Source of the DNA: a bacterium
GTDB taxonomy: Bacteria; UBA8248
Reading direction: 5' to 3'
NCBI GenBank assembly: GCA_965213625.1
Contig: CBDBZU010000004.1
Location: forward strand, 992,001-1,056,000
Length of the DNA: 64,000 nt
The position numbers were made by a program, and so were the translations under genes. Shown in pieces: positions 34,049-35,761 of the stretch. Below the pieces are notes generated by a model. The model was given only the letters and a program-made list of their open reading frames with translations. It was not told the origin of the DNA and did not search any database. How positions within the stretch are numbered: position 1 is the stretch's first letter; each line of letters opens with the position of its first letter.

Positions 34049-34133
34049 CGCAAAACTCCCACGGGAACGATATTGATAATAACGCGCGCCCAGAAGCCCG
34101 GGCGGCGCACAACGGCTTCAAGGGAGACTCAAG

Positions 34134-34379
34134 ATGTCCGATAAGGAAGTGACGGTCTATTCGTCCACGTTCTGAGCGCCGTGCAAGGCGGTGAAAGAGT
34201 TTCTTTCCCATCATGGCGTGGCGTACACGGAAAAACTCGTCGATCAGGACGAAGCAGCTCTGGAGGAACTCTTCCAGAGAGCGGAGATGCGGGCCACGCC
34301 CGTGATTTTCATCGGCGAGGAGAAGGTGGTCGGCTTCGACAGGGCGAAGCTCCAGGCGCTTTTGGGGCTCGCCGCGTGA
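34134..34379 (+). CDS. Glutaredoxin/NrdH-like selenoprotein (UxxC; Sec at TGA 34173-34175), 81 aa
   Basis: GGGAG RBS and ATG; reads MSDKEVTVYSSTF-U-APCKAVKEFLSHHGV..ATPVIFIG..VVGFD. The UGA sits exactly at the first Cys of the Grx CxxC motif and is followed by a hairpin. Confidence 0.88.
34176..34219 (+). promoter_or_regulatory. Putative bacterial SECIS element
   Basis: Lower stem GCGCCGTG/CATGGCGT, upper stem GAAAGA-GTT-TCTTTC with G first in the loop, about 24 nt after the UGA. Confidence 0.6.
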
Positions 34380-34675
34380 GCGAGAGGCGAAAGACGCTTC
34401 CCTGCCACGGCTGAGGGCAGCGCATACCCGTCCCGTGGGACGCGAAGCCGCGCGACCTCATCGATTGCGGCAACTGAGCGGGGGTCAGGTTTCGCCTGGG
34501 CCGGGCGGAGGGGACGGAGGTGCTCACCGTCGTACAAATGGTCTCATGCCCTGTTTGCGGCGAGCGCATCCCGGTGGATGGGGATACCTCCGCAGGAACA
34601 ATCGTGGAGCACGACGGAAAAAGGCTTTGCCTGGAGAAGGAATTCGGCGCGTTCGTTCTGGAACCTGCGGAATAG
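34376..34675 (+). CDS. Tandem zinc-ribbon-like protein with two in-frame UGA (CxxU twice, plus CxxC), 99 aa
   Basis: GTGA overlap with the Grx stop; MSERRKTLPCHG-U-GQRIPVPWDAKPRDLIDCGN-U-AGVRFRL..VSCPVCGERIPV..EHDGKRLCLEKEFGAFVLEPAE; TGA at 34412 and 34475. The internal repeat aligns U13 with C61. Confidence 0.78.
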
Positions 34676-34701
34676 GGGCTATTGATAAACCCCTTGCGGG
34701 G

Positions 34702-34730
34702 TTGGCACGGGGTGGGGCGGGTGTTAGAAT
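34702..34730 (+). promoter_or_regulatory. Sigma70-type promoter upstream of trxB
   Basis: TTGGCA-N17-TAGAAT with TG extension. Confidence 0.5.
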
Positions 34731-34804: not shown

Positions 34805-35761
34805 GTGGCTGAGCGGGATTTCGACATCATCATCATCGGAGCGGGACCGGCCGGACTGACGGCGGGGCTTTACACGGCGCGCTCGAAGCTGAACGTGGTC
34901 TGCTATGAAAAGCTCGCGCCCGGCGGCGAGATTCTCAACACCGAGCACGTGGAAGACTACCCGGGCTTCGAACTGGTCGGCGGCCAGGAATTGGCGGCCA
35001 AGTTCACCGATCACGCCATGAAATTCGGCCTCAATATAGAGATGGAAGAAGTATCCGAAGTCCGCAAGGACGGGGATGATTTCGTCGTCGTCACCGATAT
35101 GGGCGAGCGCCGCTGCGGCGCCGTGATCTACACGCCCGGCGGTTATCCGAAAAAACTCGGCATTCCGGGCGAGGAGAAATACGCCGGCAAGGGCGTGAGC
35201 TACTGCGCGCTGTGCGACGGCGCGTTCTTCCAGGACGAGGTCATCACCGTAATCGGCGGCGGGAACAGCGCCGTGGAAGAGGGGCAGTTCCTCACGAAGT
35301 TCGGCACGAAGGTCTACATCATCCATCGCCGCGATCAGTTCCGCGCCCATGCGGTGCTGGTGGACAAGATTCGCGAGAACCCGAAAGTGGAGATCATCAC
35401 CGATTTCGTACCCGAAGAAGTGGTGGGCGACGACCGGGAGATGAAGAAGCTTCGCATCAAAAACGTGAAGACGGACGAGACGCAGGAGATCGATGCCACG
35501 GGCCTGTTCGTCTTCATCGGTTTTATTCCGAACACGGATTTGATAAAAGATCACGTAGAAAAAGACGACGCAGGCTTCATCTTGACGGACCAGAACATGG
35601 AGACGAACGTTCCGGGCCTGTTCGTGGCCGGTGATTGCAGAAGCCAGCTGATTCGCCAGATTACCAACGCGTCGGGCGATGCGACGACGGCGGCGGTGGC
35701 GGCCGAGAAATATCTCGAAGCCCAGGAAGAGGCCAAGAAGGCCGCGGCAGCGGCTTCCTAG
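34805..35761 (+). CDS. trxB: Thioredoxin reductase
   Basis: IIGAGPAGLTA, GKGVSYCALCDG, IGGGNSAVEE, HRRDQFRA, FVAGD, QIT.A.GD. Confidence 0.95.
   Translation: MAERDFDIIIIGAGPAGLTAGLYTARSKLNVVCYEKLAPGGEILNTEHVEDYPGFELVGGQELAAKFTDHAMKFGLNIEMEEVSEVRKDGDDFVVVTDMGERRCGAVIYTPGGYPKKLGIPGEEKYAGKGVSYCALCDGAFFQDEVITVIGGGNSAVEEGQFLTKFGTKVYIIHRRDQFRAHAVLVDKIRENPKVEIITDFVPEEVVGDDREMKKLRIKNVKTDETQEIDATGLFVFIGFIPNTDLIKDHVEKDDAGFILTDQNMETNVPGLFVAGDCRSQLIRQITNASGDATTAAVAAEKYLEAQEEAKKAAAAAS

Follow-up and report, generated by a model that had tools for sequence, protein, structure and literature searches.

The stretch of DNA analysed here (the window) comprises 64,000 nucleotides of a bacterial genome of the UBA8248 lineage (GenBank assembly GCA_965213625.1, contig CBDBZU010000004.1, positions 992,001 to 1,056,000), and the gene under study lies at 34376..34675 of it, where it is predicted to encode a tandem LysW-like zinc-ribbon selenoprotein (below, the ribbon gene and the ribbon protein); all features described are on the + strand. 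The gene has 99 codons, begins with a GTG at 34376 that shares bases with the preceding gene's TGA stop (GTGA), and ends with a TAG at 34673-34675. Its frame is interrupted by just two stops, both TGA, at 34412..34414 (codon 13; UGA1, predicted selenocysteine (Sec) 13) and at 34475..34477 (codon 34; UGA2, predicted Sec34). Each UGA occupies the last position of a C-x-x-U knuckle (C10-H-G-U13 and C31-G-N-U34, the latter continuing as C-x-x-U-A-G), and would thus supply the second ligand of the first and second knuckle, respectively. In its frame, overlap, end and two TGA codons the DNA reads exactly as an earlier inspection of the letters (the sequence-only reading) had claimed. A second ribbon domain at 34535..34672 carries C57-x-x-C60 and His79, with Asp80 where the second knuckle would be; gene callers list this portion by itself. 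The internal duplication proposed earlier was recovered by BLASTP of residues 5-50 against residues 51-99 (E 5e-05, 8/25 identities, CHG[U]GQRIPV aligned with CPVCGERIPV) and by Pfam Zn_ribbon_LysW, which matched in two stretches.

Standard annotation breaks this gene, as the sequence-only reading had anticipated. The translation table 11 open reading frame (ORF) listing of the locus contains a 51-amino-acid piece (34520-34675) together with a fragment further upstream that terminates at the first TGA, and in public protein sets ribbon homologs occur as fragments that start just past the UGA1 or UGA2 position (for example P0022, P0030, P0044 and P0052), from which we conclude that gene callers miss the full gene. 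A further database protein, P0034, looks like the C-terminal half of a glutaredoxin-like protein linked to a ribbon protein from just past the first-knuckle position, which would make it a fusion protein or else an incorrectly called Sec locus of another lineage.

Homologs were sought by six-frame translation of 61 related genomes, reading through stops; the homolog count includes the window's own genome, and weak matches (L002, L003, L029 and L030) were excluded from every count. Full-length ribbon homologs were found in 26/61 genomes and any ribbon gene in 27/61. The 26 homologs align gap-free over 92 columns and contain two TGAs (9 homologs), one (7) or none (10) inside the match: site 1 is TGA in 15/26 and a Cys codon in 11/26, and site 2 is TGA in 10/26 and Cys in 16/26. 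A metagenome scan added 13 ribbon loci, some of them duplicates of the genome loci, all with Cys at site 2 and, where site 1 was covered, with TGA there in 8/11; at one of these, L086, TGA is present at site 1 at just 34% identity. One sequence from the scan, L087, does not read as a homolog and was rejected. Homologs with Cys or UGA at both positions, which the sequence-only reading had called for, thus exist in the genomes and at the metagenome loci alike.

The wider family was collected by a profile search of 1.84 billion representatives, which returned 86 proteins at E <=0.001 and 38 at E <=1e-10. Its full-length members are Cys-only and approximately 94-100 amino acids long, and many others are fragments starting just past the UGA1 or UGA2 position, as expected because gene callers cut Sec forms there. 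In an alignment of 33 wider-family sequences both Sec columns are invariant Cys. Among 5.8 billion clusters there were 6 near-length ribbon proteins, of which both source-named ones are recorded as 'hypothetical protein', with Nitrospinota given as the label of one record.

Selection on the gene extends through both UGAs. Conservation does not stop at the first UGA, a point on which the earlier proposal could have failed, and runs before and across both in the 92-column alignment. Within the genus the median ratio of nonsynonymous to synonymous substitution rates (dN/dS) was 0.20 overall, 0.27 for codons 3-50 (the UGA-bearing half) and 0.15 for codons 51-99, and third-position differences outnumbered those at either of the other codon positions in each of the gene's four segments. 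Synonymous divergence (dS) was lower in the N-terminal half (0.45 vs 0.81), as would be expected if RNA structure adds constraint. One relative has gained a nucleotide at 34381 (+1) and lost another at 34393 (-1), which returns the frame before Cys10.

The TGA codons are not TGC or TGT misread, since many independent assemblies keep them (nine genomes with both), which excludes sequencing error as their source. Positions 34100-34513 are also covered by another study's contig, which shows 10 differences; among the differences listed, none falls at either TGA. A relative's contig from an RNA library (87% alike) extends over the upstream glutaredoxin-like gene and the greater part of the ribbon gene (34133-34632), which is no proof of transcription. 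The genome encodes the Sec machinery presupposed by the sequence-only reading: selA (505 bits), selB adjoining selA (388 bits) and selD (333 bits), all above cut-offs, and a tRNA-Sec (75.9 bits, above cut-off) that ARAGORN called as SeC with anticodon tca.

Hairpins that could serve as Sec insertion sequence (SECIS) elements follow both codons. Candidate SECIS 1 (34429..34442, CGTCC-CGTG-GGACG) has a 5-bp stem and a 4-nt loop and begins 14 nt past UGA1. Candidate SECIS 2 (about 34491..34509, TTCGCCTG-GGC-CGGGCGGA) has an 8-bp stem including G-U pairs and a 3-nt loop and begins 13 nt past UGA2; its stem is kept in 10/10 site-2 Sec forms, the conserved hairpin being UUCCGCCUG-GGC-CGGGCGGAA in RNA writing (consensus -16.7 kcal/mol). 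In all Sec forms the hairpins begin 13-15 nt past each UGA, with stem sequences that differ in distant forms. At site 1 every Sec form has, at this distance, a hairpin of 5-7 bp with a 4-nt loop, whose stem varies by lineage (CGUCC/GGACG, CCGUACC/GGUACGG or GAUCCC/GGGAUC) and whose register shifts by 1 nt between lineages; in one base pair both partners have changed within the genus, from G-C to A-U. The sequence-only reading had named candidate SECIS 1 and, for the second site, CAGGT-TTC-GCCTG at 34486-34498. Both are present in the window, but the latter is broken in relative L004 and it overlaps and excludes the hairpin at 34491-34509, which is the conserved one.

As evidence for decoding the hairpins are weak. 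Compared with shuffles, and judged on the window by itself, neither shows extra stability (z 0.05 and -1.30), and mean folding energy at site 1 is -10.2 kcal/mol in Sec forms (15 distinct sequences) vs -10.6 kcal/mol in Cys forms (13), with no Sec advantage. At site 2 the means are -14.2 (Sec) vs -10.4 kcal/mol (Cys), a difference resting on 8 distinct Sec sequences of which 7 come from one genus. As the hairpins are located in conserved codons, they are inseparable from protein constraint in these data.

The same statistics bear on whether this is a selenoprotein gene at all. If the UGAs were stops, so that just the C-terminal 51-63 residues were made, or if the gene were decaying, one would understand why the C-terminal piece is all that gene callers report, why the gene is gone from about half of the genus and why the hairpins are not statistically distinctive. 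Such an explanation was judged very improbable: UGA is aligned with an invariant Cys at both sites, the N-terminal half has a dN/dS of 0.27, paired indels restore the frame, full-length all-Cys homologs exist, and the Sec machinery of the genome is complete. It is the homologs, not the open frame or the hairpins, that put the ribbon gene beyond chance, and the comparative sequence evidence indicates that it is very probably a real Sec-decoded gene.

An AlphaFold2 model, made with the 26-sequence alignment, was all-beta (mean predicted local distance difference test score 88.1, predicted template modelling score 0.69). Its top Foldseek match was LysW (3vpb_E, TMt 0.82, E 0.099), and VIA-align likewise ranked LysW first (3vpb_F, Z 7.9, root-mean-square deviation 1.8 over 56/56 residues), followed by 3wwl_A (Z 5.4) and an unrelated structure (Z 3.3). 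Pfam Zn_ribbon_LysW (PF21344) scored 30.1 bits against a cut-off of 27, and a PDB profile search retrieved S. tokodaii LysW at E 3.9e-05, whose CPVC...VEHECG stretch aligned with domain 2. Domain 1 forms a four-ligand ribbon with C-x-x-[C/U] twice (ligand positions Cys10, Sec13, Cys31 and Sec34), and domain 2 pairs its C-x-x-C with (H/C)-C (wider family) or H-D (window genus). The LysW-like ribbon assignment of the sequence-only reading is therefore upheld by Pfam, the PDB profile match and the fold search in agreement, and the ribbon protein is modelled as a tandem LysW-fold zinc ribbon.

LysW and ArgW carriers bear their substrate on an acidic C-terminal tail ending in Glu and have LysX/ArgX-type pathway genes nearby. 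As LysW is the sole clear structural and sequence relative, we considered that the ribbon protein might itself be an amino-group carrier of this type in an amino-acid pathway, and regard this as extremely improbable. The carrier models remain below cut-off (NF041070 44.3 vs 75 bits; TIGR01206 16.2 vs 53.2 bits for the all-Cys homolog L016), the architecture is tandem, and the C-terminus is unconserved past FGAFxLE, continuing variously as LEPAE, LEPI, LEEAG, LVSE or longer tails. The neighbouring genes (glutaredoxin-like, thioredoxin reductase, PrpD-like, iron-sulfur or Mer-like) include none of LysX/ArgX type.

No selenoprotein-specific NCBIfam model matched; the small metal- or CxxC-type selenoprotein models NF041197, NF041115 and NF045648 were absent at E <=1 for both the window protein and L016, in a comparison in which HMMER filters drop most matches above E ~0.1. 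The available parts of a 2026 review of prokaryotic selenoproteins describe the FmdB-family zinc ribbon (TIGR02605, UxxU) as an already predicted selenoprotein family, and the available parts of its Table 1 hold no LysW-like or tandem-ribbon family (PMC13188914). The TIGR02605 model gave 10.2 bits on the all-Cys homolog against a cut-off of 31.3 and was absent for the window protein at E <=1. Full-text literature searches, whose reach stopped short of paper supplements and BSepDB, returned nothing on a tandem-ribbon selenoprotein family. The sequence-only reading's statement that no characterised family has this architecture therefore fits the NCBIfam and literature searches, but a Sec-containing zinc ribbon as such had been predicted before, in FmdB. 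As judged from sequence, the ribbon protein represents a new predicted selenoprotein family, whose function we infer.

The gene directly upstream (34134..34379, ATG at 34134, TGA stop within the GTGA) encodes a glutaredoxin-like protein of 81 amino acids with the active site F-U-A-P-C, in which the in-frame TGA at 34173..34175 is predicted to specify Sec14; one TGA lies inside the match in 39/41 genomes with a match. It scored 78.9 bits with the NCBIfam model for YruB-family glutaredoxin-like proteins, under the 88.55 cut-off, and standard ORF calling reduces it to a 62-amino-acid piece from 34191. The sequence-only reading had correctly placed a glutaredoxin overlapping the ribbon start, to which can be added that this gene is itself predicted to encode a selenoprotein (below, Sec-Grx). 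A UxxC Sec-Grx gene lies directly upstream of the ribbon gene in 32/32 loci, at distances from an overlap of 13 nt to a spacing of 18 nt, with the Sec kept in 32/32, and the distant relative L086 also has it directly upstream. The pairing is one-way, with Sec-Grx in 41/61 genomes vs the ribbon gene in 27/61. Taken together, the ribbon protein is probably an obligate functional partner of Sec-Grx. Reading of the Sec-Grx stop TGA as Sec, which would fuse both genes, was also considered and rejected on account of stops in L004 and L005 and of the non-TGA Sec-Grx stops used by other lineages.

Downstream, a thioredoxin-disulfide reductase (TrxR) gene occupies 34805..35761 (TIGR01292, 362.9 bits vs 343.45), and tblastn found no second close TrxR copy in the genome; an ordinary thioredoxin is encoded elsewhere in it. 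The order PrpD-like, Grx, TrxR is kept in 10/11 Grx loci that lack the ribbon gene. A hairpin 15 nt past the ribbon stop (CCCC-TTGC-GGGG then TT, 34690-34706) might terminate transcription or serve a regulatory purpose ahead of TrxR. In some same-genus genomes the interval between the ribbon gene and TrxR holds an insert of ~1.1 kb with two genes (130 and 167 amino acids, no Pfam match; L009:1938-2838, L012:1930-2830 and L005:457-1363), and at the ribbon-less loci L061 and L062 a gap of ~1.4 kb separates Grx from TrxR.

Rubredoxin-type sites have knuckles of the kind C-P-x-[C/U]-G, and those of the ribbon protein read in this way. With a 2x[4Fe-4S] protein gene after TrxR, domain 1 might be pictured as a rubredoxin-like iron electron carrier with two Cys and two Sec working near TrxR and the 4Fe-4S protein. 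This appears distinctly improbable, given that fold and profile searches led to zinc-bound LysW and not to rubredoxin, that the rubredoxin family is not among the Pfam matches at E <=1, and that the iron-sulfur gene is part of a conserved synteny that outlasts the ribbon gene.

Outside the window genus (g1), 11/13 ribbon loci have Mer-type genes (MerE, MerT, MerF, MerR-like or CopZ-N-like) within the fetched flanks, compared with 0/11 Grx(U) loci lacking the ribbon gene. MerE scored 35-42 bits (cut-off 22.8), MerF 93.4 bits (cut-off 50) and the CopZ-N-terminal-like 2Fe-2S metallochaperones 100.9-112.4 bits (cut-off 100). The MerR-like regulators had a mercury-type model as their best match, at 111-143 bits, under its cut-off of 150.85. 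Some MerT-like genes beside the pair carry an in-frame TGA of their own (L024 ~1850-2241, ...SSAC-U-IGP...; L016 ~2100-2440; L088 5214-5648). In G030 a MerT-like ORF stops at ...RVEGMT, where the heavy-metal-associated (HMA) motif would start, and resembles the MerT/CopZ fusion selenoprotein NF045683 (weakly, 20.5 bits). Inside the Mer-type cluster of the same genome, a 448-amino-acid flavoprotein (L088 3059-4405) was examined as a MerA candidate and rejected (301.8 vs 454 bits, no C-terminal Cys pair); it is a class-I flavoprotein disulfide reductase with the active site GGTCALRGC.

On this context rests the suggestion that the ribbon protein could be a soft-metal (mercury-type) binding or hand-off partner of the Sec-Grx/TrxR pair, a proposed role that we consider possible and short of probable. 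With both UGAs read as Sec, the product would be a 99-residue all-beta protein with two LysW-fold domains, made together with the upstream Sec-Grx protein by way of the overlapping stop and start. The Cys2Sec2 site of domain 1 might hold zinc at rest and bind a soft thiophilic ion of the Hg(II) type, which could be passed on or released by selenol/thiol exchange with the UxxC partner; the partner itself would be held in its reduced form by the neighbouring TrxR. In relatives, adjacent MerT/MerE/MerF-like membrane proteins, controlled by the MerR-like regulator, would bring the ion in. The window genome lacks those transporters, and there the pair would deal with any metal or oxidant that gets into the cytoplasm. 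This metal reading is favoured because of the Mer-type neighbourhood in most lineages outside the genus and because the available part of the review implicates Sec, where it occurs in predicted MerT-, MerB-, HgcA- and metal-binding proteins, in mercury and arsenic handling (PMC13188914). A Sec ribbon gene combined with Cys2Sec2 soft-metal hand-off to Sec-Grx/TrxR was retained as the best overall explanation, held tentatively and at somewhat less than an even chance.

Several observations weigh against it. Mer-type neighbours were found in 0/13 ribbon loci of genus g1, and the window genome gave no MerT, MerE, MerF, CopZ-N or HgcA match; MerA exceeded its cut-off in 0/5 genomes tested. The two most distant genome loci, L027 and L028, adjoin AhpC/TSA-type redoxins. 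The mer association came from inspecting ribbon-positive loci, in related genomes that are not independent. As the genome's sole TrxR, the downstream gene may be adjacent through housekeeping synteny and not as part of a dedicated system. The ribbon gene is also dispensable, being not found in 10/22 same-genus genomes, and in G002 (L060 1323-1501) its first 13 codons, including the first TGA, are kept ahead of a clean deletion of ~255 nt to the gene end (after which the hairpin that follows the ribbon stop is also kept). Since Sec-Grx loci persist without the ribbon gene and G002 keeps this remnant, the gene is ancestral in the genus and was repeatedly lost. Finally, selenium and metal in the ribbon protein are predictions.

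The strongest competing account dispenses with metal trafficking and takes the ribbon protein as a redox relay or zinc redox switch, in which the two CxxU motifs of domain 1 would cycle between zinc-bound selenolate/thiolate and selenenylsulfide, with the protein serving Sec-Grx/TrxR as substrate, adaptor or sensor in oxidative-stress defence. It draws on CxxU and UxxC being typical redox motifs (available part of PMC13188914), on the Grx(U)-TrxR pair being the conserved core that persists without the ribbon gene, and on the lack of mer-like genes and the AhpC/TSA redoxins described above. It was nonetheless considered rather unlikely, with Sec sitting at ligand positions of a family-invariant Cys4 ribbon and 11/13 loci outside g1 lying within Mer-type genes with a MerR-like regulator. 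The redox and metal readings are mutually compatible.

A more specific form of the metal reading can be stated. Ribbon protein and Sec-Grx together would constitute a selenium-based module, independent of MerA and MerP, that captures and hands off Hg(II)-type ions, a reading that is at present doubtful. The module, in Nitrospinota, would rely on Cys2Sec2 coordination by a LysW fold, which as protein-metal chemistry is undescribed for any mercury system, and in the window genus it would have outlasted its transporters and taken on another use. Nitrospinota are implicated in marine mercury methylation.

If correct, the assignment adds a selenoprotein family that standard annotation reduces to a meaningless C-terminal fragment. 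Both predicted Sec residues replace invariant zinc-ribbon metal ligands and not catalytic redox Cys, which makes the family a natural test of selenium-for-sulfur substitution at a structural or transfer metal site, and all-Cys, one-Sec and two-Sec forms coexist in nature, so that comparative biochemistry would be easy. The fixed pairing with Sec-Grx and the Mer-type neighbours in relatives yield a testable hypothesis of selenium-dependent soft-metal handling in marine bacteria. UBA8248 Nitrospinota are, in the available part of one report, among the most selenoprotein-rich bacteria, with 48-54 genes (PMC13326102). Outside the window, the selD match of this genome (G000:C4:1518852-1519814, L049) has one in-frame TGA, so that selenophosphate synthetase would itself be a Sec protein, and a thioredoxin-fold match (35.5 bits, G000:C4:977810-978097, L072) ~14 kb before the window, also with one in-frame TGA, may be a further selenoprotein.

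Among known systems, HMA metallochaperones are characterised by a GMxCxxC motif. Those of the MerP/NmerA type, and likewise the Sec-containing metal-binding proteins NF041115 (UxxU) and MbdU, share with the ribbon protein a small soluble format and a paired Cys/Sec motif, and the ribbon protein of relatives likewise stands beside MerT/MerE/MerF-like and MerR-like genes as these proteins do in mer-like systems. It is, however, a zinc ribbon without the HMA ferredoxin-like fold (the HMA family was not among its Pfam matches, the corresponding NCBIfam models gave no match at E <=1, and the model is an all-beta ribbon), and a functional analogy to MerP/NmerA would hold by inference only.

Close counterparts are the Cys-only tandem ribbon proteins of ~94-100 amino acids from uncultured bacteria ('hypothetical protein'), which have the same architecture and the same invariant Cys columns and are the Cys homologs of the family. 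They have Cys at both Sec positions and, in domain 2, mostly (H/C)-C-G in contrast to H-D-G in the window genus. In ESM Atlas clusters retrieved with a natural all-Cys homolog as query, the few labelled members were Rokuibacteriota or Methylomirabilota.

The LysW/ArgW carriers (PF21344; 3vpb, 3wwl) have the small zinc-ribbon fold in common with the ribbon protein, whose second domain aligns its CPxC...H/C ligands with S. tokodaii LysW. The ribbon protein differs in having two tandem ribbons and predicted Sec at two ligand positions, and in lacking both the conserved acidic C-terminal tail and lysine/arginine pathway neighbours. A precedent for Sec at ribbon ligand positions is the FmdB-family ribbon, likewise small and with two Sec in a knuckle motif (available part of PMC13188914). 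In FmdB both Sec lie in one knuckle (UxxU), whereas the window protein has one Sec in each knuckle (CxxU twice); what is unusual in the ribbon family is that two structural metal ligands are predicted to be Sec and that the partner, probably an obligate one, is Sec-Grx.

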